From positions 1,784 to 65,783 of the forward strand of contig CAIYGI010000112.1 of assembly GCA_903925685.1 (NCBI GenBank): DNA of 64,000 nucleotides, written 5' to 3'. Positions 12,096-61,330 of the stretch are shown here, piece after piece. Source of the stretch: an uncultured bacterium (GTDB lineage Bacteria > Verrucomicrobiota > Kiritimatiellia > CAIKKV01 > CAIYGI01). The position numbers and the translations under genes are program-made. Positions within the stretch are counted from its first letter, which is position 1. Each line of letters begins with the position of its first letter. A model generated the notes under the pieces. It did not search any database, was not told the origin of the DNA, and saw only the letters and a list, made by a program, of their open reading frames with translations.

Positions 12096-14063
12096 TCACA
12101 GCTTATTCGGGTCCAGCCCGGCCTGCTGACCAGCACTTATCCTCATATAGTTCGTGGATTGCGCGGCAACAATATCCCTCAACTTCGTTAAATTCTCGCG
12201 CAGTCTGTCGGCGATCTTGGTGTCCTGCTTCTTGCTTGCCTCATACTGCTCTCTCAACTCCATCGTCTCGACAAAAAGACGCGTGAAATCGAGGCCGACG
12301 CGCACATGCGCCATCCTCTTCCGGTAGATTTCCGGCTGCTTGGCCAGCACGGTATCCGCCTCGTCCAGCAGGCCGGCGGCGCGTTTGAAGAACGCTTCAT
12401 CGTAGGCATTCCAAAACGCCAGATTGCCATCGATCTTCCGGTTGCGCGTCTCCTCCATCAGGGTCCAGTACGCCTTCAACTGCCCGGCGGCCGGCCCGAA
12501 GCCGCGCCGGTAATAGTCGTCGAGGATCTTGTACCCGTCCTGATCCGGGTTCCAGACCAGATGTGCCAGCAGGTAATATAGCGGACCCTGCGTCGGCCAG
12601 GAATTTTCGAAGATTGAGAGGGCTATCCCGGTGCAATTGTTCTTTACGACATGGCGCAAGCTTTCCATGACCCGCCCGAAAGGCACGTCGGGAAGACCAT
12701 AATAGGAGCCGCCGGCGCCGGGCATGTTGGGGCGCCACCACAGATTCGCGCCGGTCGCCGCCCAGTCGGCGAATTGCTGCGACCACGTTGTGCCCACTTG
12801 TGAATATTTATCCTTCTCACCCATTTCCGCGAACCAGTTGGGGGCAAACGAGACGATCACATTGTCGTCCGGCTTGTTCTTGAGCGGCGCCGGCGTGCTC
12901 GGACCATAGGCGAGCATGACCACTTTGTAGTCCTTGTCCGGATAGCGTTCCCGCAACTTTCGCGCCAGGTTATTCGCGAATCGCGTCTGCCGGTCGCTCA
13001 TCGCGACGTAATTCGTGCGACACGTATTCCAGACCAGGAAGCGTTTTTCCGCCTCGGGCGCATCCCAGGCCTTGCAGTTCGTGCAGACACAATATCCGGC
13101 CAAGCACCCGTCCGCGACCCCCCCTCGGAACAGGGTACGGGTAGGATCATCCTTGAGCTGCTCCTCCACGTCTTTCAGCCAGTAGTCCCAAACCGCCGGG
13201 TTGGACTTGCACACCTTGGGATAGGCCTGCCAGCCGCGCGTGCCGTCGGGTTGGAGGGCGAAATACTCCGGGTGCGTCTCGTGAAGTTTCCAATCCAAGG
13301 GCCAGTGCCCATCGGGGACATAAATCCTGTACGAGCAGTTTGCCGAGTCCAACAGCATGCGCTGCAAGCGCGACCAGTCCGAGGAAAGGACGCCCCGTGG
13401 GTCCGTCGGTGTTGCCCAGTCTAAAACACTGTACCTCAATCGAATCTTGGGATGGTAGCGATATTCGAATGGCGCAAAGGCGATCTTTTCCTTCCGGATA
13501 ATGTCCTCGCCAGTCTCGCCAGGCCAGAGCCAGCGCACGTCCAGATAATCCTGGATAAAAGTGTACACCGCATTGACCGTGCCGTATTCCTGCTGCCAGC
13601 CCTTGATCGGCCGGTCCCCTCGGCCCTTCACCACCATGTGATGGGGATCCCAGCGATCCCGCCCGGCGATGACCAGGTGGTGTGCATTGGCGGCGATGAG
13701 GATCTCTTCCGGGTTCTTGAAATCGAAATCCGTTTTCGGGAAGAGCTCCTTGAGTTTGGGCTGGAATCCGACCCAGATCGCGCGCTCCGGCACGGGATCG
13801 GGCATGCCTTCGATGACCTTCGGCTTGACGCCGCCGACCTTCTCGATATAGGCGGCCAGTTCGTCCGCCGCCTTGCGGGTCATCGGCGGAGCGTTCGAAA
13901 AGACGATGATCGGCGCCAGGCTCGCCCCCTTCGCCACCAGGGTCAGCGGCGCCGCCCGAACTTCGGAGTCCTTCTGATTCACCTTTTCCTGCGCCTCCGT
14001 GCACCCGGCGGCCACCACGAGCAGCGCCGCGCCGATCCCACATATTGCCATTCCATGTCTCAT
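12096..14063 (-). CDS. DUF4838-like putative glycoside hydrolase lipoprotein
   Basis: 655 aa with a lipoprotein-type signal (LLVVAAGC). The large conserved body resembles the DUF4838/GH20-like family common in Verrucomicrobia, Planctomycetes and Bacteroidetes. Confidence 0.55.
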   Translation of the reverse strand: MRHGMAICGIGAALLVVAAGCTEAQEKVNQKDSEVRAAPLTLVAKGASLAPIIVFSNAPPMTRKAADELAAYIEKVGGVKPKVIEGMPDPVPERAIWVGFQPKLKELFPKTDFDFKNPEEILIAANAHHLVIAGRDRWDPHHMVVKGRGDRPIKGWQQEYGTVNAVYTFIQDYLDVRWLWPGETGEDIIRKEKIAFAPFEYRYHPKIRLRYSVLDWATPTDPRGVLSSDWSRLQRMLLDSANCSYRIYVPDGHWPLDWKLHETHPEYFALQPDGTRGWQAYPKVCKSNPAVWDYWLKDVEEQLKDDPTRTLFRGGVADGCLAGYCVCTNCKAWDAPEAEKRFLVWNTCRTNYVAMSDRQTRFANNLARKLRERYPDKDYKVVMLAYGPSTPAPLKNKPDDNVIVSFAPNWFAEMGEKDKYSQVGTTWSQQFADWAATGANLWWRPNMPGAGGSYYGLPDVPFGRVMESLRHVVKNNCTGIALSIFENSWPTQGPLYYLLAHLVWNPDQDGYKILDDYYRRGFGPAAGQLKAYWTLMEETRNRKIDGNLAFWNAYDEAFFKRAAGLLDEADTVLAKQPEIYRKRMAHVRVGLDFTRLFVETMELREQYEASKKQDTKIADRLRENLTKLRDIVAAQSTNYMRISAGQQAGLDPNKL

Positions 14064-14100
14064 CGCGCTTCTCCTTTAGTGAATCAACCGCCCTCAAAAC

Positions 14101-14290
14101 CTAACAAAACGAAGCGCTTGCAAAACCTCCTGCGTCGGTTTTGCAAGTGCAGCTTCCCGGACGACACGGAGGTCGTCCCTCCAAATTCGCGGTGCGCCTC
14201 CTGCGTTGCTTCCCACCTTCAGATAACGATTCGCAGATGCGTCCCACCTCTGTTGCGATGGGATAAAGCGGCGGGACGCCGCTTCCACTT
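14101..14290 (-). repeat. copy 1 of a repeated structured intergenic element (core about 95 nt), possible ncRNA or MITE-like element
   Basis: About 95 nt are about 90 % identical to 44575..44665(+) (GCATCTGCGAATCG.TATCTG.AGGTGG.AAGCAACGCAG.AGGCGCA.CGCG.AT.TGGAGGGACGACCTCCGTGTCGTCCG). It contains a GACGAC-CTCCGT-GTCGTC hairpin. Its 3' part (toward the DUF4838 start) is a hairpin plus a U-run, TTGCAAAACC-GACGCAGGA-GGTTTTGCAA GCGCTTCGTTTTGTT. Confidence 0.7.
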
Positions 14291-14315
14291 TGCAGAATCA
14301 CGCCTTAATCTGAGA

Positions 14316-14415
14316 CACTTAGTCCCCACCCTTAGTCGGTTACACTTAGTCGTACCACTTAGTCGATTAAGTGTAAGCGACTAAGCGTAACCGACTAAGT
14401 GTGCCGACTAAGAGT
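14316..14415. repeat. about 100-bp imperfect palindrome built from four direct CTTAGTC(G/C) units followed by three inverted CGACTAAG units
   Basis: cacttagtcc..cttagtcgg..cttagtcg..cttagtcg [attaagtgtaag] cgactaag..cgactaag..cgactaag. It is intergenic, downstream of the beta-helix gene. Confidence 0.8.
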
Positions 14416-14421
14416 GCAATC

Positions 14422-15777
14422 TTACCGGATAATGAACATCGTGCCTCTGGTCACGTATTCGTAGCAGCCCATATCCACGATGCCGGAGACGGGGTCCTTG
14501 CGCCGCTGGCCGTCCAAATCCGTCGCGCCATTCATCCAGTCCTGGTTCGTTCCGGTGTTGATGCAGGGCGACGGGGCTTGCAAATGGAAATCCTGCTTCG
14601 CAAAATTCACGAAGTTCGGCGAATTGGTCACGATGATGCCGCCAAAAACACAGTTGGCTATAGCTATATTGTTCGTGAGCAAGCAGGAGTTGGTACAAGA
14701 ACTGCTGGTGGTGGTCCCGTAGTTTACTATGTCGCTGACAGCGCCATTAACCAAATTGGAACGCATGATCGTATTCCAGATATTGAAGAAGGTTGCTGCT
14801 TGGGCACGCACATGGATGCCGGCGCCAAGTACCGCAGAGTTGCTGACGATGGTGCAATTATAAAGTCCTGCACTAGAAGCGCTATTGGCTAAGACGATCC
14901 CTCCACCCCTCTCTCCACTATAGTTATTATAAATCAGGCAATTCCGTACCTGCGCAAGGCTTGTACCCTGCTCAAAGGAAATGCCGCCGCCACCATTCCC
15001 GAAGGCGGTAGAGAGGGCACGATTGCCGCTGACAATACAGTTTTGGATAATGTTCGTCATGCCTCGTCCGCAGTGAATACCACCGCCAGGTCCTGCGGCC
15101 GAATTACCACTTATAAGACAGTTACTGATTATCAAAAGTGAGGCGCCCCCGGAGCCGTACGAGTTAAAATATATTCCCCCTCCCGACCCCGATGGCGCAC
15201 TATTACTGCTGAACGTACAGCCCTTTATGGTGTATTTCACGCCAGGGGAGGCTAAAAACGGATAACACAGCCCGCCCCCGTAAGCTCCTGCCGAAGCGTT
15301 ACCACTGACCACGCAGTTACTCAAATTCCCGGAGAAGTTTGCAATGGGCGAGATATAAATGCCGCCGCCGCTGGTGGATGACCAGCAATTGGAAACGGTA
15401 ATACCACCTATGTTGTATGGGTAAGTCACGAGCACGGGATAAATCGCAATGCCCCGATTGGTGTTGGAGCCGTCAATGCTCACGCTGGCCGGATTGCCGT
15501 TGGAACTGACCAGCGTGATCGGTTTGCTGATAGTCACCACGTTGGTGAGGGTGGCGTTGGTGGTATAATGCCCGGCGCCGATCAGCACCGTGTCGCCAGC
15601 GCTGGCCTGGTCGACCGCTTCCTGGATGTTGCTGGCCGCGCTGTCCCAGGTGGTGAAGGCCCCGCTGGGCGTCTGGCCGTTCTGCGCCACGTAATGCGTG
15701 TCGATCGCGGCCCGCACAGAGTTCGCCGCGCCACAGACCATCAGAACCACGAGAACTGACTGCACGATCGTCTTCAT
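14422..15777 (-). CDS. secreted right-handed parallel beta-helix repeat protein (pectate-lyase-fold)
   Basis: The start is at the internal Met (MKTIVQSVLVVLMVCGAANSVRA signal peptide). It has many Gly/Ser/Asn-rich PbH1-like repeats (GGGIYI.., NCxxSGNSA..). Confidence 0.7.
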   Translation of the reverse strand: MKTIVQSVLVVLMVCGAANSVRAAIDTHYVAQNGQTPSGAFTTWDSAASNIQEAVDQASAGDTVLIGAGHYTTNATLTNVVTISKPITLVSSNGNPASVSIDGSNTNRGIAIYPVLVTYPYNIGGITVSNCWSSTSGGGIYISPIANFSGNLSNCVVSGNASAGAYGGGLCYPFLASPGVKYTIKGCTFSSNSAPSGSGGGIYFNSYGSGGASLLIISNCLISGNSAAGPGGGIHCGRGMTNIIQNCIVSGNRALSTAFGNGGGGISFEQGTSLAQVRNCLIYNNYSGERGGGIVLANSASSAGLYNCTIVSNSAVLGAGIHVRAQAATFFNIWNTIMRSNLVNGAVSDIVNYGTTTSSSCTNSCLLTNNIAIANCVFGGIIVTNSPNFVNFAKQDFHLQAPSPCINTGTNQDWMNGATDLDGQRRKDPVSGIVDMGCYEYVTRGTMFIIR

Positions 15778-15894
15778 ATCATCTCCTTTGCCTAATTGTG
15801 AGCCTTTTGCACAACTGCATGGCTCTTTTCCGTTTCCGATCCCTTGCCTCATCGAATACCGAATACAGCCAAGGCCAAGCCATTCGCTCTAAGA

Positions 15895-15965
15895 CATTAC
15901 CTGATTAATCGATTAATCGATTTTACTTGATTAGGCAATTATACTTGATTAATCGATTTCATTTT
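15895..15965. promoter_or_regulatory. operator-like palindromes TTAATCGATTAA (two to three copies) in the divergent promoter between the beta-helix gene and the AraR-like regulator
   Basis: ctgATTAATCGATTAATCGATttt at 15901-15924 and cttgATTAATCGATttc at 15944-15960, in an AT-rich patch 50-110 nt upstream of the regulator start. Confidence 0.55.
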
Positions 15966-16013: not shown

Positions 16014-17204
16014 ATGAAGTCCCAAAAACCAGTCGTGAACAAAAGCGCCTCTTGCAGCAATCCGGTTAGAAAGCTTGGCAAAGGCGCACGCATTCCCATC
16101 GATGTTCCGAAGCTGGCAGGTGTCCCGAAATATGCCTGGCTTCAAGGCAAACTGCTCGAAGAGATCCGCAGCGGGCGCTGTCGAGTCGGCGACCGCCTAT
16201 GCACGGAGAAGGAGTTGATTGTCCGCTACCATTTGAGCATCTCCACCATCGCGCGTGCATTGCGTGAGCTTGAATCGCAGGGGTATGTACGGCGAAAGCA
16301 AGGCCTCGGCACGATCGTCAACAGCGTCCACCCCACCGTCAATCAAGCGACCGCCTCTGGCATGGCGACACTCCTGGTATGCGGCATAGTGAACGATGCC
16401 GCCCCTGATTACAGCAATGTCAACTGGTTTATAGCGCACGAGTTTGTTCGCGGCCTGGTCAACACGTTTGAAGGACGTGTTAGACTGGTGAAGCCCACCG
16501 GACTGTTTGCGCAGTTGGACGCGTTGCCGCCCCAATCCAGGGCGGTCGTCATATATGATGGCGCCTTCGATCTAGTGCGACGGCTCGAAGAAGAACACAT
16601 TCCGCACTGCATCATTGACCGGCACACAAACACCACCGACTGCCGTCCGAACACGATCTCGTTCGACCGCATGCGCGGTATTTACGACGGGATGACGTAT
16701 CTGATCAAGAATCTTAGGCATTGTGACATCGCGCTGGTGACCACAGATGCCGGTTTAAACCACGAGAACAGAATCGCCGGCTACCAGATCAGCCTGCGCG
16801 CATTCGGTATTCCCTACCGCCCAGAGCTGGAAGTATTCGCTCCTCCGGGTGGCAGCCAGGAATCTGGCGAAGCCGCCATCCGTGAATTATTGGGGCGCCG
16901 TATCCCCTTTACCGCGGTCTTTGTGGACACTGACATCAAGGCGCTCGGCGCCATAAGGGCCTTGAAACAGGCCGGACTTGCAGTGCCAGGCGACGTTTCT
17001 ATTTTAGGCTTTGACGATGTTCCCGGGGGAGATCGGGCCGATCCGCCACTTACCACCATCCGGGTGCCTCATTTCGAATGCGGGGTAGAGGCCATCCGCC
17101 TCTTGGATGAACGCCTGAGGACGGGAAATGATGTGCCAGGCCGTATTTTAAACACGCGACTGGTTGTGCGACAATCCTGCGGCATGGCAAAGAAAGTTGT
17201 ATAA
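16014..17204 (+). CDS. GntR-family HTH / LacI-type sugar-binding-domain transcriptional regulator (AraR-like)
   Basis: The N-terminal wHTH (KYAWLQGKLLEEIRSGRCRVGDRLCTEKELIVRYHLSISTIARALRELESQGYVRRKQGLGTIV) is GntR-type. The C-terminal about 270 aa are periplasmic-binding-protein-like (LacI/GalR), the architecture of B. subtilis AraR. Confidence 0.75.
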   Translation: MKSQKPVVNKSASCSNPVRKLGKGARIPIDVPKLAGVPKYAWLQGKLLEEIRSGRCRVGDRLCTEKELIVRYHLSISTIARALRELESQGYVRRKQGLGTIVNSVHPTVNQATASGMATLLVCGIVNDAAPDYSNVNWFIAHEFVRGLVNTFEGRVRLVKPTGLFAQLDALPPQSRAVVIYDGAFDLVRRLEEEHIPHCIIDRHTNTTDCRPNTISFDRMRGIYDGMTYLIKNLRHCDIALVTTDAGLNHENRIAGYQISLRAFGIPYRPELEVFAPPGGSQESGEAAIRELLGRRIPFTAVFVDTDIKALGAIRALKQAGLAVPGDVSILGFDDVPGGDRADPPLTTIRVPHFECGVEAIRLLDERLRTGNDVPGRILNTRLVVRQSCGMAKKVV

Positions 17205-18024: not shown

Positions 18025-18160
18025 AATCCGCCGCTGAGCCTCTTGCGCAGTCGCGCGTAAGCTTCCAACTTATGCCCTTCGTTTTCTGCGCGATACCATG
18101 CCGCGTTGAAAACGACGAAGATAGTGGCGCAAAGATAATCTCCCTTGTCTATTCCCTTAT

Positions 18161-18202
18161 CTGTCGCAATTGTTCTGTCGCAATTGTTCTGTCGCAATTG
18201 TT
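18161..18202. repeat. three perfect tandem copies of the 14-bp unit CTGTCGCAATTGTT
   Basis: ctgtcgcaattgtt x3, each with the CAATTG palindrome. It lies in the divergent promoter between the UroD-like gene and the xylose-isomerase-like gene. Confidence 0.85.
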
Positions 18203-18316
18203 CTTGCATTACGACCACTGGCACGCCATTCTGCTGTCTCAATAAGCAACGCGCCGACAACGCATCGAGTCGCCATTTTTCGCGGAAGCAACGAAACGAA
18301 CAAAAGGAAATCCACC

Positions 18317-27563: not shown

Positions 27564-30500
27564 TCATGGATGTTCTCCGTTCTCCTGCACAATCCCGATT
27601 TCCTCATCTGTCAGGCCGTAAAGCGCGTAGACCAGACGGTCAACCTCGCGGTTCGCCGCGTGAATCTGGCGGTCAAGCGCTTCCTTGTCGGGCGGGGACT
27701 TCGCGACGGCAACCTGCTTACGCAAACTCATGATCTGGTCCACCAGGTTGTGGAGGATGGCAGATGCGCCTCCTGTCGGGATGGCGATGGGCATTTGTTC
27801 GATGTATTGCTTGTTAAGCGCGATGTACCCGCCGCGAAATGGTGTACTGATCGACCGAAGGAAACGGCTCAACAAACTCGAATTGAGTATCCCGAGTAGG
27901 CAGTAGTAGTCGATGGTTGCATCTTCGCGAAGCGTAATCCCGTAGCCGCCTCCTCCACCCCCGCCACTTCCGACAAAAAAGTAGCGTCCTTCAAGGTCCG
28001 GCGCAAAGCAACTGCCCGTCGCAATGGAAGGAACAAGCAACTTGGGAAGAGGCATTTTGGTGTGGTTCTTTTTGTAAACATATCCGTACCATTGCAGCCC
28101 CAGCTTGCCTTTGTTTCGCCCAGACAACCGCGCCTTGCATTCAGTTAGATAAGCCCAAGTCAGAGGAAATCGTTGAGCGTAAGCATCTGAAGGAATCAGC
28201 GCGGACTTTCCTGATCGAGTCTCATAAGGAAAGACAAGTAGTTTGGAAACATCAGACAAGAAGTAACGCCGAATATTGAGCGAACCCTTTAGAAATGGCT
28301 TCAAATGAGCGCTCTCGAACCAATGCTCTCGGCCAGTGTGCTTTGACGAGCAAAGGACTCTGCCTTTGTCACGTTTCGCTTCCTCAAGAATGAAGACATC
28401 GTCGGCATCTGTCTGAAGCCCGACAAATAGGTCGGCGATATCGCCAAGTTTTACCGGCCACTTATTGAGGGCGTTAAAGACCTTCGCCGTCGCTCCGACC
28501 GCGAAATTCCATTCTTTCGAGGTGATAACCCGGGCTGGGATGCGTCCCTCGGCTCCTGTCGTCGTGGTCTTTCTGCCTTTGGCGCGATACAATGCCGCCG
28601 CTTCATGGACAAGCATGGGAAACACATCTGTTCTCTTTCGACCTGCGGGTTCCAATTGTTCCATGCGCCATGCGTCAAGGTCATCAACCTTTACATAATG
28701 GCACTCATCTATGCCCGCTTTATGGAGGAATAGCAGGCACGTATAAGTCGTAGCCCCTGCGAACACCTGTTGATCTCCGAAATGAACGACGTGGGCAAGG
28801 TGTCTGCCGCCGGCAATGATCCCGCGCAAGGCTTCGCCGTACTGCGCATTGAAAAACTTGTGCGGCAAAATGAAGCCCAGCCGCCCGGATTTGTTCAAGA
28901 GACTCAGCGCCTTCTCGACGAAGACAACGTAAATGTCATAGTTCCCGGCCGCTGCCGACCGGTAGAGCGACTTGTAAAGCTCGACCTCGGCTGGCGCCCA
29001 TTCCTTCATCATCTGAATGCGGATGTACGGCGGATTGCCGATGATTGCATCGAAGCCTGGTAGAACGCGCTCGCCGAGCGGCGGTTTCGGCGAAACCGCC
29101 CTACCAAACACTTCTGGAAACGCTTGCGGCCCGTCGAAAACATTGATGCGGTAGCGGTCTTCCTCCGGGAGCAAGGAAAGTTGCTGGTGCCTGTAGGCAT
29201 CCGATCCGATAAGGGAGTTTCCGCATTTGATGTTGCTGCCGAGGTCCGGCAAGGCGCGTTGGTGGAACAGTTCAAACTGCTTCGTGATACTCTCTTGGGA
29301 TTCGCCTTCCAGCACTTTCAAGAGCAGCGAAAGTTTCGTCACCTCGACGGCTTGCGCGTCGATGTCCACGCCGAAAATGTTGTTGAGAAGGATTCGCTTT
29401 CTCTCGTCGGTGGTCAGGCGGAAGCAAGGTTTCAGGTGTCGGGTGTCAGGTGTCAGACCAATACCGGCGATTTCGTATAGACAAGGGTTCCGTCCTTTCA
29501 TCCAGGATCCTGGATCATGTTCGGTGTAGTACTGCAAATGCCAGTCCAGCAGTAACTGATAGGCGCCCAGCAGGAACGAGCCCGAACCGCAGGCCGGGTC
29601 GAGAATCTTCAACTTGGCCGCCTGCTTCGGCGTCCCTACTTCCAGTAATTTGCCGACCGTGTTCTTGACGATGTAATCCACGATATAGGTCGGGGTGTAA
29701 TAGACGCCACCCGCCTTGCGGACTTCCGGCTTTTCCTCAACCTTGGCCTGATGCCCGGCGGTCAGCCGGATTACCTTGCCTAGGAAGCGCTCGTAAACCT
29801 GGCCGAGAATGTCGGCGGACAAAACGGAAAACTCGTAGGGGCTTTCCGGGTAGTAGAGATTGGCGAGAATATCGTGCAAAACCTTGTCGTCAAGGTTCAA
29901 CTTCAGGGTCAACTCGTCCGGCGCTTCGGGCCGGTCCTTTTCGCGCTGAAAATGGAACAAACCAGAGTTGTAACGATCATCAGCCTGTTGGAAGAACTCG
30001 CAGAGCCGGGGGTAGACCCGCTCGCCGTTGCGAAGCGTCATCAGCCGCCCGTAAGGTTCAATGCCACGATCTTCACAGATACGCAGGAAGATGATCCTGT
30101 CAATGGTGCACTGAACGGAGAAGTTCAGTTCCCGTTGCGACAAGTCAGGATTCCGCAAAGCGATGGTCCGGGCGAGAAGGTCACGCCAGCGTTCAATTTC
30201 CTCAAGAAATGCCTCGTCCACACTGGTAGTTCCGTGCTTGCCTTTGGCGCCTTCGGCGAACTTGTCGAACGAGCCTTTCAGCACGGCTTCGCGGGAGAAG
30301 ATCGCGGCAATCTCGTCCCACTTCTCGGCGTACTGCCCGGAAGTCAGATACATGACGCGACCGACCGCCGCCGAATCGTTCTTGCAGGGTTTGACGCGGC
30401 AGTCATAGACGGCGAACTCACCGAAGTCAGTCAAGATGCTCAAAGGGAGTTTCGCCGACCAGCCATAACGCCGGAGTTGGTAAGCCGGGTGCGGGGAGTC

Positions 30501-30797
30501 TTTGATGTTCACGGACGGCTTCTTGCATTCGACAAAAAACTTACGCGCGCCGCCGATTCGGAAGCAAGAATCCGGGGCCTCCGTCGCGCCCCCGATCTTC
30601 AAGGCTTGCTCGTGAATCACGTCCTTGTAAGCTTCGGCGTAACCTTGCTCGTTGTGTACGTCCCAGCCCAGCGCTTTGAAAAACGGATCAATGAACTCGA
30701 CCCGGATTTCCGTCTCCTTGTACTGGCCGGACTCGTACGCTTCGCGTTGTGCGTCGTAGCGTTCAAGCAGCCGTTCGATCTCTTGCGGAACAGCCAT
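27564..30797 (-). CDS. Type IIG / PglX-like bifunctional restriction-modification enzyme (N-terminal nuclease-like region + gamma-class N6-adenine DNA methyltransferase + C-terminal specificity region)
   Basis: 1077 aa from MAVPQEIERLL, with GAGG at -12 and a TATAAT about 36 nt upstream. MTase motif I is DPACGSGSFLLGAY and motif IV is IIGNPPYIRIQ. The N-terminus (EIRVEFIDPFFKALGWDV) is typical of Type IIG/IIL and BREX PglX enzymes. The gene is visibly more AT-rich than its flanks. Confidence 0.8.
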   Translation of the reverse strand: MAVPQEIERLLERYDAQREAYESGQYKETEIRVEFIDPFFKALGWDVHNEQGYAEAYKDVIHEQALKIGGATEAPDSCFRIGGARKFFVECKKPSVNIKDSPHPAYQLRRYGWSAKLPLSILTDFGEFAVYDCRVKPCKNDSAAVGRVMYLTSGQYAEKWDEIAAIFSREAVLKGSFDKFAEGAKGKHGTTSVDEAFLEEIERWRDLLARTIALRNPDLSQRELNFSVQCTIDRIIFLRICEDRGIEPYGRLMTLRNGERVYPRLCEFFQQADDRYNSGLFHFQREKDRPEAPDELTLKLNLDDKVLHDILANLYYPESPYEFSVLSADILGQVYERFLGKVIRLTAGHQAKVEEKPEVRKAGGVYYTPTYIVDYIVKNTVGKLLEVGTPKQAAKLKILDPACGSGSFLLGAYQLLLDWHLQYYTEHDPGSWMKGRNPCLYEIAGIGLTPDTRHLKPCFRLTTDERKRILLNNIFGVDIDAQAVEVTKLSLLLKVLEGESQESITKQFELFHQRALPDLGSNIKCGNSLIGSDAYRHQQLSLLPEEDRYRINVFDGPQAFPEVFGRAVSPKPPLGERVLPGFDAIIGNPPYIRIQMMKEWAPAEVELYKSLYRSAAAGNYDIYVVFVEKALSLLNKSGRLGFILPHKFFNAQYGEALRGIIAGGRHLAHVVHFGDQQVFAGATTYTCLLFLHKAGIDECHYVKVDDLDAWRMEQLEPAGRKRTDVFPMLVHEAAALYRAKGRKTTTTGAEGRIPARVITSKEWNFAVGATAKVFNALNKWPVKLGDIADLFVGLQTDADDVFILEEAKRDKGRVLCSSKHTGREHWFESAHLKPFLKGSLNIRRYFLSDVSKLLVFPYETRSGKSALIPSDAYAQRFPLTWAYLTECKARLSGRNKGKLGLQWYGYVYKKNHTKMPLPKLLVPSIATGSCFAPDLEGRYFFVGSGGGGGGGYGITLREDATIDYYCLLGILNSSLLSRFLRSISTPFRGGYIALNKQYIEQMPIAIPTGGASAILHNLVDQIMSLRKQVAVAKSPPDKEALDRQIHAANREVDRLVYALYGLTDEEIGIVQENGEHP

Positions 30798-30835
30798 TTC
30801 TACCTCGTGAATCTGAAGGGGCATTATAACGCATA

Positions 30836-32092
30836 TTACTCGGGCAACCAGCCGCGGCGGATGGCGTCTTCGATCATGGCGGAGGCGAAGGCCCAGAGCG
30901 GCGCGGCGCCTTCTTCCATGTGGCGGTTGCGCGCCCGCACCTGGGCCGCCTTGACGCCGTGATCGCGCCAGGCCACGCCGCCGGTGGCGTAGTTGTGCAT
31001 GATCGGCTGCAGGCGGTCGAGCGCCGCCGCGAAACGGGCCTCGGGCGTTTCCCGCGCCTCGAACTCGTCCCACAGCGCCCGCATGGCAACGGCCTGATCC
31101 GGCGGCAGCATCGCAAACAAACGCGCCGCCGCCCGCTGTTCGCGAGCGGGCTTCTCGACGTTGCCGCGCTCGTCGTAGCAGTAGGTATCGCCCGCGTCGA
31201 TTTCCACGATGTCGTGGACCAGCGCCATGCGGATCACCCGCCCGAGGTCGAGTTGCACCGGCGCATGCTCCGACAGCAGCGCGGCCATCAGCGCCAGGTG
31301 CCAGGAATGCTCGGCGTCGTTCTCGTAACGTGAGCCGTCGGTCAGCCAGGTCCGGCGCACAATCTGCTTGAGCTTGTCCGCCTCGGCCACGAAGGCCATC
31401 TGCCGCGCCAGCCGCGCGTTGCCCGCCGCGGGCAGTTCCGCCGGCGGTTCCTCGACGGCCACGCCGCGGGCGCGTTCGATCCAGCGCAGCAGTTCGCGCG
31501 CCACGGCGCGCTTGCTGCCCAGCGGCAAGGGCTGCGGCGGCGCGCCCGGCGCCAGCAGCACCACGCGATTCGTGTCAACATCGAAGCCGGCGTCGGGCTG
31601 GGTCACATCGTTGGCGACCATCAGATCGAGGCCCTTCTCCGCCAGCTTGCGCGCCGCCTCTTCCAGCATGTGGTCGGTCTCCGCGGCAAAACCCACGAAA
31701 GTCCGCGCGCCTTTGAGGGGCTTGATCGTCTTGAGGATGTCCGGTGTGGCCTCCAGCTCGAACGCCGGATGCGCGCCGCCTTTTTTCCGTTTCACCGCCG
31801 CGCACTGCACCGGCCGCCAGTCGGCTACCGCCGCCGCCATCACCAACGCCTCGCAGGCCGGCAGCGCCGCCCGCACGGCGGACAGCATCTCCTCCGCCGA
31901 GGTTACCCGCAGCAGCGTCACGCCACCCGGCGCAAGCAGCGCCGTGGGCCCGGAGACCAGCGTCACGGCATGGCCGCGCCGCGCCGCCTCGGCGGCCACG
32001 GCGTAGCCCATCTTGCCGGACGAGCGGTTGCTCAGAAAACGCACGGGATCCCAGAATTCACGCGTCGGCCCGGCTGTGACAAGCAAATGCAT
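30836..32092 (-). CDS. coaB: phosphopantothenate-cysteine ligase (CoaB domain) fused to a C-terminal HD-domain phosphohydrolase (YfbR-like)
   Basis: The N-terminal about 225 aa (LLVTAGPTREFWDPVRFLSNRSSGKMGYAVAAEAARRGHAVTLVSGP...FVGFAAETDH...LDLMVANDV) are collinear with the CoaB half of E. coli Dfp. The C-terminal about 190 aa carry HD motifs (ENDAEHSWHLALMA, LVHDIVEIDAGDT). No CoaC flavoprotein domain is present. Confidence 0.75.
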   Translation of the reverse strand: MHLLVTAGPTREFWDPVRFLSNRSSGKMGYAVAAEAARRGHAVTLVSGPTALLAPGGVTLLRVTSAEEMLSAVRAALPACEALVMAAAVADWRPVQCAAVKRKKGGAHPAFELEATPDILKTIKPLKGARTFVGFAAETDHMLEEAARKLAEKGLDLMVANDVTQPDAGFDVDTNRVVLLAPGAPPQPLPLGSKRAVARELLRWIERARGVAVEEPPAELPAAGNARLARQMAFVAEADKLKQIVRRTWLTDGSRYENDAEHSWHLALMAALLSEHAPVQLDLGRVIRMALVHDIVEIDAGDTYCYDERGNVEKPAREQRAAARLFAMLPPDQAVAMRALWDEFEARETPEARFAAALDRLQPIMHNYATGGVAWRDHGVKAAQVRARNRHMEEGAAPLWAFASAMIEDAIRRGWLPE

Positions 32093-44365: not shown

Positions 44366-44570
44366 ATTAAAACATGGAGCTTCGTCGAATATCGTTCCGA
44401 CGTTGCATCAGCGAACATTTCGCCTTACGCCCACGCGGCTCGCGAGAACGCTCGCCCTCCCAAAAAACGTCATCGAAGCTATTCGGGAGGGCGATCGTCC
44501 TCGCGAGCCGTGTGGGAAGCGGATGAAAAGGCGGTCCACGAATGGTCCCAGCCTCCGTAGGCGAGAATTG

Positions 44571-44744
44571 GGCGCATCTGCGAATCGGTATCTGCAGGTG
44601 GAAAGCAACGCAGAAGGCGCAGCGCGGATGTGGAGGGACGACCTCCGTGTCGTCCGTGAATCAGCCGGAGTGAGGAACGGACGGGACGGAGCCCGTCCCT
44701 CCAGAAGACAAGGCGCATCCGCAACGATTCGCAGATGCGCCCCG
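44571..44744 (+). repeat. copy 2 of the repeated structured intergenic element, here bounded by 18-bp terminal inverted repeats
   Basis: The left end is GGGCGCATCTGCGAATCG at 44571-44588. The right end is CGATTCGCAGATGCGCCC. Internal hairpins are GACGAC-CTCCGT-GTCGTC and GGGACGG-AGC-CCGTCCC. The core is about 90 % identical to copy 1 at 14101..14290(-). It sits in the A2M-pirin intergenic region. Confidence 0.7.
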
Positions 44745-50633: not shown

Positions 50634-51561
50634 GTTCCTTGTCGCACTTTTCGACCGGCGTTTTCAATCCCTTTATGATGGAGTCCCTCATGCCGGGAAT
50701 GGACGACAGGTACAACGTTGCTTGAATCGCCCTCCAGTCATCTTCCGAGATAAGCACGGCGCTGTGTCGCTTACCCGCGATTTGCAGCGGGGCATGCGAT
50801 TCGGCGACATCGTCAAGAAGGGTGTAGAGATTTGGTCTCGTTCCGAAGGAGCCTTGGCGCAGGAAGGAGAGCGTCAGGGCAATGACCTTTGGGTTGCGCA
50901 TGATGAAGGGGTGGGCGGTGTTCACCGCGGCGAAATCCTTCATGCCAGCCAGTTTTGTCCGCTCCACCGATACTTTGCCGTCGTTGATGCCGGGGATCAG
51001 GGCCGAAAGGATCCAGTTGATGGAACGGGTGCCTGCGATCACGCCGACCTCGACCGGCGGCGCGGGGAGCCGGTTGGGTAGCGAGTTGCCGGCTGTACCG
51101 AGCTGCAGCCCGGCCGGTCCGTTGATCCAGCGAAAGAGTGAAAAGCTCCCAAGTTTGTCCACTACTTCGCTGCCCTGATTGGGCGGGGCCAGCATCACGA
51201 TTCGGCCGGCGTTCTCCAGTCTGTGCGAGGCAAAATATTGCCGCAGCACGATGTTGCCCAGCGAATGCGCCACAAAATGAATCCTGGCCGGCTTCGCGGC
51301 CTGGCATTGGGCAAGCAAGGGGGCCAGATGTTCATCGGCCAGTTGTTGCACGGTATTCTTGCGGGATGGATATTGCATCGAGTGTACGGCGTAGCCGGCG
51401 TCGGTCAAAGCCTTCTGCATGCGCTTCATGCTGCGACTGGTTCGCGCCAAACCGTGCAGCAGCATAACGATTTCCTGGCCCGGCCGCATGCGATTGTCGA
51501 TCGCCGTTTTGGCGGGTGTATGACCGAACATGGTTGCGGCGAGTTTCCTTATGCCAGGCAT
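50623..51561 (-). CDS. alpha/beta hydrolase (lipase-like GxSxG) continuing in frame into a Phd/YefM-type antitoxin-like C-terminal region
   Basis: The N-terminal about 220 aa have VMLLHGLARTS and FVAHSLGN (nucleophile elbow). The last about 90 aa (from the internal ATG, MRNPKVIALTLSFLRQGSFGTRPNLYTLLDDVAESHAPLQIAGKRHSAVLISEDDWRAIQATLYLSSIP...) align with E. coli YefM ([51 protein letters not shown]). No stop codon separates the two parts. Confidence 0.6.
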   Translation of the reverse strand: MPGIRKLAATMFGHTPAKTAIDNRMRPGQEIVMLLHGLARTSRSMKRMQKALTDAGYAVHSMQYPSRKNTVQQLADEHLAPLLAQCQAAKPARIHFVAHSLGNIVLRQYFASHRLENAGRIVMLAPPNQGSEVVDKLGSFSLFRWINGPAGLQLGTAGNSLPNRLPAPPVEVGVIAGTRSINWILSALIPGINDGKVSVERTKLAGMKDFAAVNTAHPFIMRNPKVIALTLSFLRQGSFGTRPNLYTLLDDVAESHAPLQIAGKRHSAVLISEDDWRAIQATLYLSSIPGMRDSIIKGLKTPVEKCDKELDW

Positions 51562-51580
51562 AATCCCAAACTGCGCGATC

Positions 51581-51896
51581 CTAATTTAGTTGATCGAGGA
51601 TTCCGTAAAACTCCTCAAGGGATTTGATGCATCTCTGCATCAGCACCCAGGCGCCCCAGGTTATCAGCAGGATCACGATCGTCCAGATGATTTTATTGCG
51701 CAGGCTGTAGTTCGGGTTGCGCCAGAGGAGCGGGATGGCCAGCGGGCCCACACAGAAAACCGCCGTGATCAACCAGCCGGTCTGAAAATACCAGGGCCGT
51801 CGCGGCTTTTTCAGCAGGAACTGTCCGCAGAACCGGCACAGAACGGCTTCTTCCTGAATTTCTTCCGCGCAAAACGGGCACTTCTTCATTGGCATA
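51581..51896 (-). CDS. small zinc-ribbon membrane protein
   Basis: The start is at [25 protein letters not shown] (CxxC...CxxC), followed by two TM helices. Confidence 0.55.
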
Positions 51897-51944
51897 AGTC
51901 GAGTATAAGGACGAAGCAGGATGAAGAGCAAGTTGCAAAGAACG

Positions 51945-51979
51945 CCACCCTCCACCCTCCACCATCCACCATCAACCTT
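51945..51979 (+). repeat. heptamer tandem array A (CCACCCT x2, CCACCAT x2, CAACCTT)
   Basis: Immediately downstream of the comF stop and about 50 nt upstream of the zinc-ribbon gene. Confidence 0.85.
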
Positions 51980-51983
51980 CTTC

Positions 51984-52703
51984 CTAGCCGCCGCGGGCAA
52001 CCGTGGCGACGAAAACGCGCCAGGCGCCGGCGGCGCGCAAGGCGCGCGCACATTCTCCGACCGTGCTTCCGGTTGTCATCACATCATCCACCAGCAGCAA
52101 CCGCCGCCCTCGCACCCAGCCTGGGTCGGCCACGGCGAAAGCGCCGCGCACGTTTTCGGCGCGCGCGGGGGCGCTGAGGCGGGTTTGCGTGGCAGTTGGG
52201 CGGATGCGGCTCAGCAGGCGCGGCATCAGCGGCAGGCCGCGGCGGCGGGCCAGGTCGGCGGCCAGCAGACGGGACTGGTTGTAGCCGCGCTCGCGTTCGC
52301 GCGCCGGGTAGAGCGGCACGAAGCAAACGGCATCCAACAGTTCGTCGCTGTAATGCGCGCGCACGCAACCTTCCAGAAGTTCGCCGAGGTCTGGGGCCAG
52401 GTGAATGGCGCCCTGGTATTTGAAGGCGTGCAGGAGATCGCGGATCGCGCCGTGGTAGCGGACCGCGGAGCGGGCGCGCTCGAAGGGCGGCGTCTTGTCG
52501 CGGCACCAGCCGCAGACGAACTCCGCCTCGGTCACGCCCTCGGCGGGATCGCCGCAGACGGAGCAGAAGGGCGGCGCGATCAGCGGCAGCCCGGCGACGC
52601 AATCCCAGCAAAGGTGCCCGGCATCCAGTCCCGGCGGCTGTCCGCAGGACGCGCAGGCGCGCGGAAATGCGAGGTCAAGCAATGACCGCCAGAATTGGCG
52701 CAT
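51984..52703 (-). CDS. comF: ComF family protein (phosphoribosyltransferase-type competence protein)
   Basis: An N-terminal double zinc-ribbon (CASCG...CWDC...CSVCG...CGWC) and a C-terminal PRTase motif [14 protein letters not shown]. Confidence 0.85.
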
Positions 52704-52714
52704 GGCAAATTACT

Positions 52715-52751
52715 CGGGTGGATGGTTGAAGGTGGAAGGTGGATGGTGGTA
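52715..52751 (-). repeat. heptamer tandem array B (reverse orientation: CCACCAT CCACCTT CCACCTT CAACCAT CCACCC), ending about 10 nt upstream of the comF start codon
   Basis: Plus strand gggtggatggttgaaggtggaaggtggatggtggtag. It is an inverted partner of array A. Confidence 0.85.
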
Positions 52752-52792
52752 GTTCGTCATGTCCGCAATCAGTGCTGCCAGCTTACGGTCAT

Positions 52793-52856
52793 CTTCCACC
52801 CTCCACCCTCCACCTTCCACCCTCCACCTTCCACCCTTCACCTTCCACCCTTCACA
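52793..52856 (+). repeat. heptamer tandem array C, about nine copies of CCACCYT (CCACCCT/CCACCTT/TCACCTT)
   Basis: ccaccctccaccctccaccttccaccctccaccttccacccttcaccttccacccttcac, between the mtnP stop and the comF promoter. Confidence 0.85.
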
Positions 52857-52864
52857 TGGCACCA

Positions 52865-53752
52865 TTACTTTGCAGGCGATATATAGCGCCCGATCAGCGG
52901 CGCCAGCGACTTCTTGATGGCCGCGGGGATCGCGGCGGGATCGGTCATGATCGCGTATTTCAAGGCCGTCGTGCAAGCGCAGTCGCGCGCCTCCGGCAGG
53001 TTTCGGGCAAGCTCTTCGATGACCTGTTTGCCGAGCCCGACGTTGGCCTGCAAATGTCCCATGATGGCATCCACCGAGACCTCTTTCTCGGCGCGGTGCC
53101 AGCAGTCGAAGTCCGTCACCATGGCCATGGCCTGGTAGCACATCTCCGCCTCGCGGCAGAGTTTGGCTTCAGGCAGACTGGTCATGCCGATCACGTCGAA
53201 ACCGAGCTTGCGGTAGGTGTCCGACTCCGCGCGCGTAGAGAAGGCCGGGCCTTCCATGTTCACGTAGGTGCCGGACGGGAAAAGGCGCGGCGGTTTGTCC
53301 GCCCGCTTAAGCACATCCGCGGCCACGCCGGCCAGCAGTTTGCGGAAACTGTCGCAGCTGGGATCGCCGAACGAGACATGCGCCACGATTCCGCCGCCGA
53401 AAAAGGTATGTTCGCGCGCGGACTTGGTGCGGTCGTAGTACTGATCCGGCAGCACGATGTCGCGCGGCTGCAGGCCCTCGCGCAGACTGCCCACGGCGCT
53501 CACGGAAAGCACCCAGGCGCAGCCGAGTTCCTTCAGCGCGAAGATATTGGCGCGATGGGGAATCTCGTTCGGCAGCAGGCGGTGGCCCTGTCCATGCCGC
53601 GGGAGAAAGTAAAGTTCACGGCCGTGAAGACGTCCGTGCAGCAGCGCGTCGGAGGGCGCGCCGAATGGCGTTTTCACCGTCACCGACTCCACGTTTTTCA
53701 GGCCTTCGAGACGATACAATCCGCTTCCGCCGATAACGCCAAGCTTCATCAT
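52865..53752 (-). CDS. mtnP: S-methyl-5'-thioadenosine phosphorylase
   Basis: The start is at MMKLGVIGGSGLY. The PNP/MTAP family pattern is present (GVIGGSG, MTSLPEAKLCREAEMCY). Confidence 0.85.
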   Translation of the reverse strand: MMKLGVIGGSGLYRLEGLKNVESVTVKTPFGAPSDALLHGRLHGRELYFLPRHGQGHRLLPNEIPHRANIFALKELGCAWVLSVSAVGSLREGLQPRDIVLPDQYYDRTKSAREHTFFGGGIVAHVSFGDPSCDSFRKLLAGVAADVLKRADKPPRLFPSGTYVNMEGPAFSTRAESDTYRKLGFDVIGMTSLPEAKLCREAEMCYQAMAMVTDFDCWHRAEKEVSVDAIMGHLQANVGLGKQVIEELARNLPEARDCACTTALKYAIMTDPAAIPAAIKKSLAPLIGRYISPAK

Positions 53753-53808
53753 ATGCCAGCTCCCCCCCCATATCAGTATTCCCAACAGTCTTCAGCCTTC
53801 AGCCTTAA

Positions 53809-55080
53809 TTACGGTGTTTTCGGTTCGCTTTCCAAGGCATTCAACTGTTCCTCGATGCCCGCCAGTTCGCTGCGCAGCGCCGCCACCTGCCTGGTTACGA
53901 CCGGTTGCGCCGGGACAATTTTCGCCGGGCCCGCCTCGCGCTCCAATTGCATTTCCCGGTATTTCATTTGACGCAGTTGATCCAGGGCGCGCGTGCGCGC
54001 GGCCCCGCTGGACGAATCGGCCCTTTTGGCGACTTTTTGCATCTCCGCGCGGTGCAGGTCAAGGCGCTTCTGCGCTGCCGAACGTTCGACAGGCACACTG
54101 TCATCGGCAGACGCGTGCAGGCTTTTCAACTGCGCCTGGATGGCCGACTGCCTGTCGTGCAATTGACGGATCGCCCGGCCGCGCACAGACTCCTGCTGTG
54201 GCGGCGTAGCGGTGGCGGCGGGCGCGGATGTCGCTTCCGTCTGAACTGTAACCGGCTCGGGTGGCGGTGGAGTTGGAAGGACTGCCGTTTGGGGTGGGGG
54301 TGCGGCCTCCGTCTCGGCGGGGGAAAACTTTGGGCCGATCTGACGCGCCGGCTTGGTCAGGCGTTTCTGAACCGGACGATCCGTCTGATCCGACTGATCC
54401 GACTGATCGGTCCGATCCGGCTGATCGTTGGTTTCCCGGATCACGGGCTTGGGTTTTCCTGGGCAGAGCGGGTTGTTCGGATGGCGGGCGGCCAGCAGCA
54501 CCCGCGCCTTTTCCATTTCCAGGCGGTCCCTGTCGCTCAAAATTGCGAGCAGTTCGCGGTAACCGGCCCAGCGGTCCCATGTCATCTTCTCCGCGCCATA
54601 GAGCACGTCGCCGGCGGCCCATTGCGGCAGGCTGAGCACGGACTGCGGCGATGCGAAATTCCACGGCTCCGCATCGTCGGGCGGCACAAGCGTGGCCAGG
54701 GCGTCGGCGGCGTCTTCGGCTTCGTTGTTGCGGCCCAGGCGCACGAGCACACGCACGGTACGTGTTCCGACTTCACGCACCAGCAGGCCATGGCGCACGG
54801 CCGGCTCCGCCATTTCCCTCAACGCGTTGAGCGCCGCGGTATCGCTTCCCATTGTCATCAAAGCATCCACTTCTGTCAGGCGCGCTTGAAAACCTCGCAG
54901 ACGGAGATAGGTCAGCCCGGTTGCGGCTGCGGCTGCCACGATCACGGCCAGAATGATCCAAGCGAGCGCCTTGACGATGAGGGACGGCGTTCTAGATGGC
55001 AGGTTGCCGCCGGGTGGACTGACCGCCGGCGGCGCGGACTGCGCCGGACGCTTCACGCGAAGTGTGCGAAGCTTGGGCAT
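53809..55080 (-). CDS. membrane-anchored coiled-coil protein with internal DQS/DQT short tandem repeat
   Basis: The start was chosen at MPKLRTL (GGAGG 4 nt upstream). There is one TM helix (IVKALAWIILAVIVAAAAATGL), a Pro-rich linker and a C-terminal coiled coil. DRTDQSDQSDQTDRP is encoded by gatccgactgatccgactgatcgg repeats at about 54375-54420. Confidence 0.45.
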   Translation of the reverse strand: MPKLRTLRVKRPAQSAPPAVSPPGGNLPSRTPSLIVKALAWIILAVIVAAAAATGLTYLRLRGFQARLTEVDALMTMGSDTAALNALREMAEPAVRHGLLVREVGTRTVRVLVRLGRNNEAEDAADALATLVPPDDAEPWNFASPQSVLSLPQWAAGDVLYGAEKMTWDRWAGYRELLAILSDRDRLEMEKARVLLAARHPNNPLCPGKPKPVIRETNDQPDRTDQSDQSDQTDRPVQKRLTKPARQIGPKFSPAETEAAPPPQTAVLPTPPPPEPVTVQTEATSAPAATATPPQQESVRGRAIRQLHDRQSAIQAQLKSLHASADDSVPVERSAAQKRLDLHRAEMQKVAKRADSSSGAARTRALDQLRQMKYREMQLEREAGPAKIVPAQPVVTRQVAALRSELAGIEEQLNALESEPKTP

Positions 55081-55510
55081 TGCCTCCGCCGGGCTTGATT
55101 GTCTGACCCTGTCCGTGGACAAAGGAGGCCGGTTGGGATAAGATGATCCCCGCGGTTTGGAAGATGGCTCGGTCTCTGATTTATTCATAAATGACGGATC
55201 CCGCTGAATGGGCGAAGGGGAAGTATAATGCGACGGGACGTTCGTTGGGTAGAAAAACTTGAGGACGATGTGCGTCGCGAGGTCAGGGTTGGCGTCACGC
55301 AGCGCGGGATTAGCTGGCAATCCTGGCGTTCCGACGTCAAGCGCTGGGATTATTCGATGCTCCCGACGCCGCAGGATTGGACCGCCTTGGAAAGCCGCAT
55401 GGCCGACCGTTACGCCCGCCGCAATGCGCCCTATGCCGACCTCGAGCGGGTTCGAAAAGCCCGGGCCTCGGCCACAGGCGAGGATGCCGCAAAGGCCTAA
55501 AAGGAACCGC

Positions 55511-58427: not shown

Positions 58428-58443
58428 TACGGAACCGTAAGCC

Positions 58444-61324: not shown

Positions 61325-61330
61325 ACGGTC

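Follow-up and report, generated by a model that had tools for sequence, protein, structure and literature searches.

Repetitive extragenic palindromic (REP) sequences and bacterial interspersed mosaic elements (BIME), BOX elements, enterobacterial repetitive intergenic consensus (ERIC) elements and miniature inverted-repeat transposable elements (MITEs) are well studied in Proteobacteria and Firmicutes. REP/BIME, ERIC and BOX elements act as 3'-end barriers, as stabilisers or as partial insulators. To our knowledge, dispersed intergenic repeats are almost unstudied in the superphylum of Planctomycetes, Verrucomicrobia and Chlamydiae (PVC), where nearly all genomes are metagenome-assembled genomes (MAGs). 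We analysed a stretch of 64,000 nucleotides, called the window here, from contig CAIYGI010000112.1 of an uncultured bacterium of the Kiritimatiellia. It contains a palindrome of about 100 bp in the 358-nt spacer that separates the stop of a gene for a right-handed beta-helix protein from the start codon of a DUF4838 gene, both located on the minus strand. The palindrome is probably one copy of an old, dispersed, noncoding and non-autonomous modular repeat of the PVC bacteria. A REP is a stem-loop of 20-40 nt with an unpaired GTAG or CGTC tag, and REP families are known in the PVC bacteria Opitutus terrae and Rhodopirellula baltica (PMC3733652). Nothing of the modular kind with a 10-bp core is found in that REP survey.

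The palindrome extends over window positions 14315-14415, is symmetric about 14365 and consists of four direct and four inverted 10-mers, ACACTTAGTC and GACTAAGTGT, that are spaced 13-14 bp apart. Its parts are listed here; L numbers refer to loci that were fetched from other genomes and from metagenomes.

14301-14314, plus strand: left flank with CTTAATC at 14304-14310, a fifth, degenerate module, and with TCTGAG, common to the copies L065 and L027
14315-14364, plus strand: left arm of four head-to-tail modules with the spacers CCC, GGTT and GTA
Left-arm cores, plus strand: ACACTTAGTC at 14315-14324, ACCCTTAGTC at 14328-14337, ACACTTAGTC at 14342-14351 and CCACTTAGTC at 14355-14364
14365-14415, minus strand: right arm of four inverted modules that mirror the left arm about 14365
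Right-arm cores, minus strand: GATTAAGTGT at 14365-14374 (degenerate), GACTAAGCGT at 14379-14388, GACTAAGTGT at 14393-14402 and GACTAAGAGT at 14406-14415
14416-14421, no strand assigned: right flank GCAATC, common to the copies L010, L065 and L145 (GTGCAAT)

A preliminary description of this locus had reported four direct and three inverted octamers. When their starts were located again in the window, the direct CTTAGTC(G/C) octamers were found on the plus strand at 14318, 14331, 14345 and 14358 (spacing 13, 14 and 13) and the inverted octamer CGACTAAG at 14378, 14392 and 14405 (spacing 14 and 13), as had been described. A mismatch-tolerant comparison showed that the conserved unit is the 10-mer ACACTTAGTC, with direct copies starting at 14315, 14328, 14342 and 14355. 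A fourth inverted unit had been missed: the gap 14366-14377, described as a 12-bp centre, holds the degenerate unit GATTAAGTGT (14365-14374), and the layout is therefore 4+4 and essentially loop-free. The palindrome itself was recovered, but to call it near-perfect is too strong. The outer 38-nt arms (14315-14352 and 14378-14415) are 87% complementary, and between the offsets 6 and 55 from the centre 34 of the 50 positions pair. The cores contribute 28 pairs at 39 positions and the 3-4-nt spacers 6 at 13; the complementarity between the arms is 78% for the cores and 40% for the spacers.

The octamer CTTAGTCG occurs seven times in the window, compared to 0.74 +/- 0.88 times in 100 dinucleotide shuffles, none of which reached seven. 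Six copies fall in the array. The seventh, at 27473, adjoins, probably by chance, a minus-strand gene (27564-31073) for a type IIG restriction-modification enzyme of 1169 aa, in which an Eco57I/MmeI-type methylase is fused to HSDR_N and TaqI_C specificity domains. Tandem Repeats Finder (TRF) reported arrays with the periods 13, 14 and 27 at the palindrome locus. The element of 101-120 bp is noncoding since the 13/14-bp period clashes with a reading frame; the overlapping open reading frames (ORFs) are spurious.

A genome-wide search for octamer arrays, which the preliminary description had proposed, was run with the pattern CTTAGTC-N6/7-CTTAGTC-N6/7-CTTAGTC on one genome per GTDB species (596 Gb), requiring three perfect heptamers. 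At least 120 loci were found, whereas about one is expected by chance (596 Gb x 2 strands x 4 gap combinations / 4^21). Roughly every second match listed was to heptamer microsatellites or perfect 13/14-mer tandems from cyanobacteria, Gammaproteobacteria, Bacteroidota and others; these are unrelated and were excluded. Thereafter, about 50 arrays at 46 loci in at least 17 MAGs remained among the matches listed, all with a common core and period. The distribution and the copy numbers of the family are drawn from these matches and are lower bounds. The carrier MAGs have the taxonomic labels, as deposited, of Kiritimatiellia, Verrucomicrobia, Lentisphaerae/Lentisphaerales/Victivallales, Planctomycetaceae, Ca. 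Moanabacter and "PVC group", and one PVC-type array (L006) is located on a 2.6-kb contig binned as Gammaproteobacteria.

Among the matches listed, the family core is ACACTT(A/C)GTC followed by G or C, with variable flanking positions. Successive modules are 14 bp apart in 153 cases and 13 bp apart in 75, and the arrays run from direct to inverted in 29 instances and in the reverse order in 3, while 20 are unidirectional or truncated. A typical copy has four modules facing four inverted ones within about 100-115 bp, and the spacing 13, 14, 13, then 22 across the centre, then 13, 14, 13 recurs in several genomes. When the fetched loci and the window were taken together (359 kb), 250 of the 270 exact cores lay within arrays, with about 5.5 matches expected by chance. 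The number of modules per array ranges from 3 to more than 18, and some arrays, for example L101, grow via duplication of a 27-nt dimer. Many Kiritimatiellia copies are asymmetric, with TTAGTC in one arm and GACGAAG in the other, and have a conserved A.G (or C.U) mismatch in every module pair. L045 (6279-6365) and L050 (2988-3102) carry one composite repeat with 3+3 and 4+4 modules, respectively; this symmetric gain or loss in each arm suggests that the two arms are kept matched. From these comparisons we take the element to be a copy of a dispersed repeat and not the control region of a neighbouring gene.

The copies closest to the window palindrome were then compared over their full length. 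Window 14309-14427 matches L010 (5751-5857), L027 (3798-3906) and L065 (5352-5472) with 83-90% identity over about 112 nt, and these are three different contigs of the MAG JANYBP01 (GCA_025360745.1). A metagenome scan with the subfamily-centre pattern led to one further copy only, L145, which is the fifth of this subfamily and is present on one metagenome contig with 83-90% identity to the window copy. The flanks of all the subfamily copies are unrelated and the JANYBP01 sites are non-syntenic. Beyond the right flank, about 40 more nt are conserved in L010, L065 and L145; the window copy diverges there. The pairwise identity within the subfamily is 92% in the cores and 79% in the spacers. JANYBP01 is congeneric with the window organism: on its contig 22, the region collinear with window 51086-63268 has a DNA identity of 87-93%, and CysS is 94% identical between the two, with named relatives at 66-68% from the Kiritimatiellia and Verrucomicrobia. 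A profile made of the five copies detected full-length homologues in loci of Kiritimatiellia, Moanabacter, Lentisphaerales and Planctomycetaceae (E = 1e-12 to 1e-24).

In a second clade, the array is part of a composite repeat of 360-390 nt that is 88-91% identical between MAGs of different species and is flanked by non-homologous genes. Its composition is as follows.

Composite repeat, in order: three copies of GACATGATTG, nested GC-rich hairpins, GCGGCACCGCTTTCTCT, CTCCGCGC-N4-GCGCGGAG, then the module arrays

The upstream module with the GACATGATTG units carries a TTGACA. The Kiritimatiellia-type composite of L072 (1867-2253) corresponds to that of L007 (3222-2835) with 88% identity, and the type was also seen in L008, L018, L101 and L110. 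We considered L072 and L007, and likewise L045 and L050, as orthologous loci; this was rejected, as only the 360-390-nt repeat is common to them. A link to oriC, raised by a perfect DnaA box beside L072/L007, was also rejected, as only 6 near-matches were located no more than 250 nt from arrays, where about 3 would be expected. Since whole copies including the spacers recur at non-homologous sites, we conclude that the element has propagated by copying.

The window has a second modular inverted block of heptamers with a 14-nt super-period, at 52716-52752 and 52795-52860 (and 51945-51980), in which GGTGGAA-type arrays face TCCACCC in 8.7 copies. Compared to the syntenic JANYBP01 contig L154, it is a clean 132-nt insertion (52726-52857; about 1649-1651 in L154), indicating that modular palindromes are gained or lost between close relatives in the genus.

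By crude ORF calls, the arrays are intergenic; ORFs that run across an array show homology to one another solely through the repeat. The neighbouring genes are convergent in about 12 cases, tandem in about 18 and divergent in about 4, and the arrays are mostly found downstream of genes. In about 14 cases the array begins no more than 42 nt from a stop codon; for the window copy the distance is 6 nt. With respect to the upstream gene, about 8 polar copies are co-directional and 4 are opposite. The neighbours are unrelated and include an FGE-sulfatase, a GDSL lipase, GH2, isocitrate dehydrogenase, SPFH, short-chain dehydrogenases (SDRs) and ABC ATPases. No transposase, recombinase or recurrent neighbour was observed beside the arrays. 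When the ORFs with a minimum length of 120 aa were compared across 44 PVC loci (8-kb windows), transposases and recombinases were likewise absent and the only recurrent families were SDRs, oxidoreductases and ABC ATPases. Furthermore, no transposase gene was present between array ends in about 360 kb of fetched PVC DNA. No target-site duplication was visible at the aligned ends of the five copies, of which the right boundary is uncertain, and no RAYT (Y1 transposase) was seen in the fetched flanks.

Searches of the literature and of databases gave no described counterpart. Apart from primers and unrelated constructs, a full-text search with the core sequence gave nothing, and a search for PVC repeats or MITEs returned only the general REP survey PMC3733652, with no description of the modular family. 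With the Rfam 15 gathering thresholds the window had no matches and the element matched no family. In 20 related loci, Rfam found only Acido-Lenti-1 (RF01687), just above the gathering score, at L008 7464-7518 and L104 1592-1636, near two arrays and not on them. Hairpins of the GGGACACTCGCCCTCC type flank several other arrays. Together with the Acido-Lenti-1 matches, they indicate that the arrays tend to sit in mosaics of different repeats. BLAST against a plasmid collection (PLSDB) and a phage collection gave no match, and the matches of the search pattern in viral contigs were rejected as microsatellites and an unrelated phage array of GACTAAGATCTAA. This array is shared by 15 IMG/VR contigs (L122, L123, L125, L126, L128, L130, L131, L134, L135, L137, L138, L140, L141, L143 and L144), has three units at 13-bp spacing plus two more, adjoins CGCGTGCGCGTAGAG, is unrelated to the PVC element and looks like a phage iteron or origin-type array.

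Each building block of the repeat has 13-14 bp, of which 10 bp form the conserved core, ACACTT(A/C)GTC, and 3-4 nt a variable spacer. We propose that the cores would be preserved by the binding of a sequence-specific factor to every module. That some protein recognises the modules in trans is plausible. Such a factor would most likely bind DNA and be supplied in trans, as an enzyme by which the element is mobilised or maintained or as a protein of the host that took it over. A reader of DNA is favoured because the spacers pair poorly (40%), the canonical arms keep a mismatch in each module and unidirectional arrays exist. The window copy appears to have landed 6 nt past the beta-helix stop, where the synteny with relatives breaks. 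The 358-nt spacer would be filled by four hairpin-forming modules in all, with this copy as the first. A dedicated role in the regulation of DUF4838 is not expected. Its local effect would most likely be passive: co-transcribed with the upstream gene, it would fold right behind the stop codon into a long hairpin with interruptions. By analogy, this hairpin may serve as a 3'-end barrier, an mRNA stabiliser or a partial insulator between the two genes.

Several points weigh against this explanation. The binding factor is purely inferred, and the local RNA effect is assumed by likeness to REP/BIME, ERIC and BOX elements. Neither strand has a U-run after the palindrome, and the terminator scan gave no match. 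The fetched loci, with their crude longest-ORF gene calls, yielded neither a mobilising enzyme nor an autonomous partner nor a target-site duplication. With the profile, a single copy was detected in the whole 64 kb of the window and no copy in 25 kb of syntenic DNA of relatives. Unidirectional arrays of 6-13 modules (L079, L101, L117 and L120) show that the palindrome is not obligatory. Finally, the JANYBP01 copies are only 74-79% identical to each other, which is below the orthologous DNA (87-93%). We conclude from this value that the copies predate the species split and that the element is an old resident repeat with no sign of recent transposition.

In a more specific version, which is possible and which we put forward only tentatively, the cores would be the sites of a protein, conserved across Kiritimatiellia, Verrucomicrobia, Lentisphaerae and Planctomycetes, that assembles as a head-to-tail filament with 13.5-bp phasing on two opposed arms, and the arrays would be transposon or MITE ends, or a chromosomal organiser or insulator. 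If true, this would be either a new transposon or MITE type in bacteria whose ends each carry four small binding modules, or a PVC-wide organising or insulating element. It would then represent a cross-phylum cis-element with a dedicated, so far undescribed reader.

The rival explanations are, in the order of their weight, a binding platform used by the host, a function at the RNA level, a local operator or attenuator and a mutational product. In the first, the arrays would have been adopted by the host as a platform for a conserved PVC chromosomal protein (for example nucleoid-organising, roadblock, insulator, replication or segregation) and kept for host use, not as selfish elements. The core is conserved in four phyla with variable spacers, and the old copies within one genome (74-79%) still keep their cores. 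The 13-14-bp spacing is fixed, 29 of the 32 two-orientation arrays among the matches listed are head-to-head, and no transposase is associated with them in the fetched loci. We nevertheless regard this explanation as unlikely, since whole copies with their spacers at non-homologous loci need copying and not selection in situ. Moreover, the orthologous DUF4838 loci manage without the element, no candidate protein is known and the module count ranges from 3 to more than 18.

Selection on the RNA was given slightly less weight again. Here, the palindrome would be a structured hairpin of the 3'-untranslated region (3'-UTR) or between cistrons, as a terminator, processing site or stabiliser, or the composite could be a multi-copy small RNA (sRNA) that titrates an RNA-binding protein by means of its recurring 10-nt motifs. 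The minus-strand RNA 14300-14430 folds with -62.5 kcal/mol, compared to -33.0 +/- 3.6 kcal/mol for shuffles (z = -8.1), which supports a capacity for the long hairpin or cruciform that the preliminary description had envisaged. In E-value mode, Rfam gave for 13900-14600 only sub-threshold matches to microRNA (miRNA) precursors (47.5 bits, gathering threshold 84) that reflect the long interrupted hairpin. A position right after stops or between convergent genes is frequent, and the Kiritimatiellia composites with their GC-rich hairpins and the TTGACA-containing upstream module also fit an RNA. However, the spacers are only 40% complementary, an A.G or C.U mismatch is kept in the middle of the module in every pair of the canonical family, many unidirectional arrays are unable to form a hairpin, and the orientation to the upstream gene is inconsistent (about 8 to 4). 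The palindrome has no U-run after it, and a consensus scan found in it neither a terminator nor a sigma-70 promoter. In the window subfamily, the strand that is transcribed here folds better in four of the five copies. We rejected this strand bias as a sign of RNA-level selection, since the copies owe it to a shared ancestor and do not count as separate observations, and since the bias is inconsistent across the family.

The preliminary description had interpreted the array as sites of a dimeric transcription factor, possibly the adjacent AraR-like regulator, and the spacer as a leader or attenuator of the DUF4838 gene. The features that bear on this model are the following.

12096-14063, minus strand: DUF4838 gene, with the ATG at 14063-14061 and the ribosome-binding site (RBS) AAGGAG at 14076-14071
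14114-14150, minus strand: hairpin with a 14-bp stem (14114-14127 and 14137-14150, 93% complementary) and a 9-nt loop, followed by UUCGUUUUGUU at 14113-14100
14149-14244, no strand assigned: 96-nt repeat, 89% identical to an inverted copy at 44570-44665
14266-14284, minus strand: GC-rich 8-bp hairpin AAGCGGCG-GGA-CGCCGCTT, with UUUAU after it on the minus strand
14422-15852, minus strand: right-handed beta-helix gene with its native TAA stop at 14422-14424, 6 nt from the last module
16014-17204: adjacent gene of the AraR-like regulator, with a GntR and a periplasmic-binding domain

The 96-nt repeat is copy 1 of the repeated element of the preliminary description, which together with the hairpin and U-run about 40 nt before the DUF4838 ATG is present as reported. 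It contains a REP-like hairpin, GGACGAC-ACGGAG-GTCGTCC (14159-14178), is outside the CTTAGTC family and has no copy in the fetched PVC loci. Both 96-nt copies have the same orientation to the downstream gene (DUF4838 and a gene starting near 44796), 85-225 nt before its start. The hairpin at 14114-14150 was missed by the terminator scan because of its 9-nt loop, and inspection by eye showed the hairpin followed by its U-run. The UUCGUUUUGUU tract ends about 37 nt before the DUF4838 ATG, so that the hairpin and U-run lie 37-87 nt upstream, and the segment 14100-14150 could be a terminator or attenuator. The hairpin at 14266-14284 scores below the threshold of the scan. Judged by its sequence, it is a weak module that resembles a terminator, and along the transcript it lies about 30 nt after the palindrome. 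Elsewhere in the window, a perfect 14-bp tandem repeat of TCTGTCGCAATTGT in 3.2 copies (18160-18204) is located about 110 nt upstream of a xylose-isomerase-like TIM-barrel gene.

The beta-helix protein ends with ...GTMFIIR and aligns through the end of its homologues; the possibility that the element truncates this gene or donates its stop was thereby ruled out. The start of DUF4838 and its RBS are supported by the conservation in orthologues, with AAGGAGAAGCGCGATGAGACAT kept in L149. The DUF4838 orthologues L146-L150 (75-81% identity) have upstream spacers of 4, 109 and 182 nt that contain no modules and resemble the window spacer only in the RBS and ATG. In the P0242 orthologue (L146-L148; 4-nt spacer), the longest contig has a BNR gene upstream and not a beta-helix gene. 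L150 adjoins an AraR-like regulator, yet does not have the element. Since the orthologue spacers differ and have no modules, and a different gene is upstream in P0242, we read the window spacer as a lineage-specific mosaic at a synteny breakpoint with no conserved leader.

The divergent region of the regulator and the beta-helix gene contains four exact overlapping copies of the palindromic GATTAATCGATT at 15903-15958, plus CTTGATTAGG. These GATTAATCGATT repeats are probably the operator of the regulator. The rest of the window, the palindrome included, does not contain the GATTAATCGATT motif, and no CTTAGTCG unit is present at 15903-15958. It is therefore very improbable that the array consists of dimeric transcription factor sites, for example for the adjacent GntR/periplasmic-binding regulator, with the hairpin and U-run as a DUF4838 leader or attenuator. 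A periodic motif clustered between two genes of the carbohydrate-active enzyme (CAZyme) type near a sugar-type regulator, and the terminator-like hairpin and U-run that precede the DUF4838 ATG by 37-87 nt, had made it attractive. However, the same element adjoins unrelated genes in four PVC phyla, mostly downstream of them, which does not fit sites specific to one gene. It is missing upstream of the DUF4838 orthologues, even in the regulator-adjacent L150, and lies about 250 nt from the DUF4838 start where it abuts the stop of the upstream gene. The palindrome itself, with no U-run after it, does not fit a leader or attenuator. The different motif in its own promoter and the lack of a coherent regulon among the neighbours speak against the AraR-like regulator as the protein that serves the array. 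That the palindrome is a chance product of local tandem duplication by slippage and subsequent inversion, with no family and no function, is extremely improbable in spite of the period-13/14/27 arrays that TRF found at the locus, the growth of arrays elsewhere by 27-nt dimer duplication (L101) and the second heptamer block in the window, an indel compared to a close relative, because homologous copies at other loci and in other phyla have the same core, period and layout and the enrichment is far above the shuffle controls.

Taken together, these results favour one copy of an old dispersed PVC repeat, and its design is unusual: a 10-bp core per 13-14 bp, typically four facing four, with the core conserved in at least four phyla. 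This conservation points to a conserved trans-acting reader. Such arrays should not be annotated as gene-specific operators or leaders in PVC polysaccharide-utilisation loci. They mark synteny breakpoints and likely cause contig breaks in assemblies, and the signature ACACTT[AC]GTC at a period of 13-14 can be used to trace PVC DNA in metagenomes.

Among the known systems, REP, BIME and REPIN sequences are similar in that they are short, noncoding, extragenic and multi-copy, often follow stops or lie between convergent genes, form head-to-head pairs able to fold into larger hairpins and share mosaic spacers with other repeats. The PVC element is likewise extragenic and multi-copy with frequent inverted pairs. 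Its unit, in contrast, is a 10-bp core that is not self-complementary and is repeated head-to-tail every 13-14 bp, and the palindrome arises only from two opposed arrays. ACACTTAGTC has no GTAG and forms no hairpin, and the variant ACACTTCGTC contains CGTC in a non-hairpin unit.

BOX (boxA-boxB(n)-boxC of S. pneumoniae), NIME/dRS3 of Neisseria and ERIC are also modular with a variable number of internal units, intergenic, capable of extended hairpins, non-autonomous and noncoding, and affect neighbouring transcripts only incidentally. The PVC modules have 13-14 bp and not the 45 bp of boxB, and the same module is used in both arms. The PVC core is conserved across several phyla and not in one species group, and has no sequence similarity to these elements.

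The ends of multi-site transposons (Tn7, Mu, IS21 and Tn402; the eukaryotic IR/DR Tc1 elements and En/Spm subterminal repeats) are inverted and each consist of several head-to-tail copies of one short binding motif, and MITEs are their small noncoding derivatives at unrelated dispersed sites. The PVC element is noncoding and with 101-120 bp well below about 500 bp, has terminal inverted repeats (87%) and occupies multiple non-homologous sites, and the window subfamily starts with TG and ends with CA (TGAGAC...GTGCA). The known transposon binding sites have 18-22 bp, whereas the PVC core has 10 bp at 13.5-bp phasing. The PVC copies have no visible target-site duplication at their aligned ends and no transposase between such ends in the roughly 360 kb of fetched DNA, three of them share 40 nt past the putative CA end, and they are old (74-79% within a genome). 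An autonomous partner was not present in the 44 PVC loci (8-kb windows).

Plasmid and phage iterons, such as the P4 ori/crr octamers, have short cores with fixed spacing in both orientations that are bound by one protein. They sit at one locus by a rep gene, whereas the PVC family is chromosomal and multi-locus with no rep gene nearby. CRISPR arrays have repeats of at least about 23 nt and unique spacers of similar length, in contrast to the 10-nt core, the 3-4-nt spacers and the two orientations found here. An operator array is contradicted by the motif of the regulator promoter, by the orthologues and by the absence of a coherent regulon, and an intrinsic terminator by the absence of a U-run and of any match in the scan. 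In conclusion, the sequence comparisons indicate that the element, which lacks the REP unit structure and for which two MITE-defining features, a target duplication and an autonomous partner, were not seen in the fetched loci, behaves as a dispersed intergenic palindromic or mosaic repeat.

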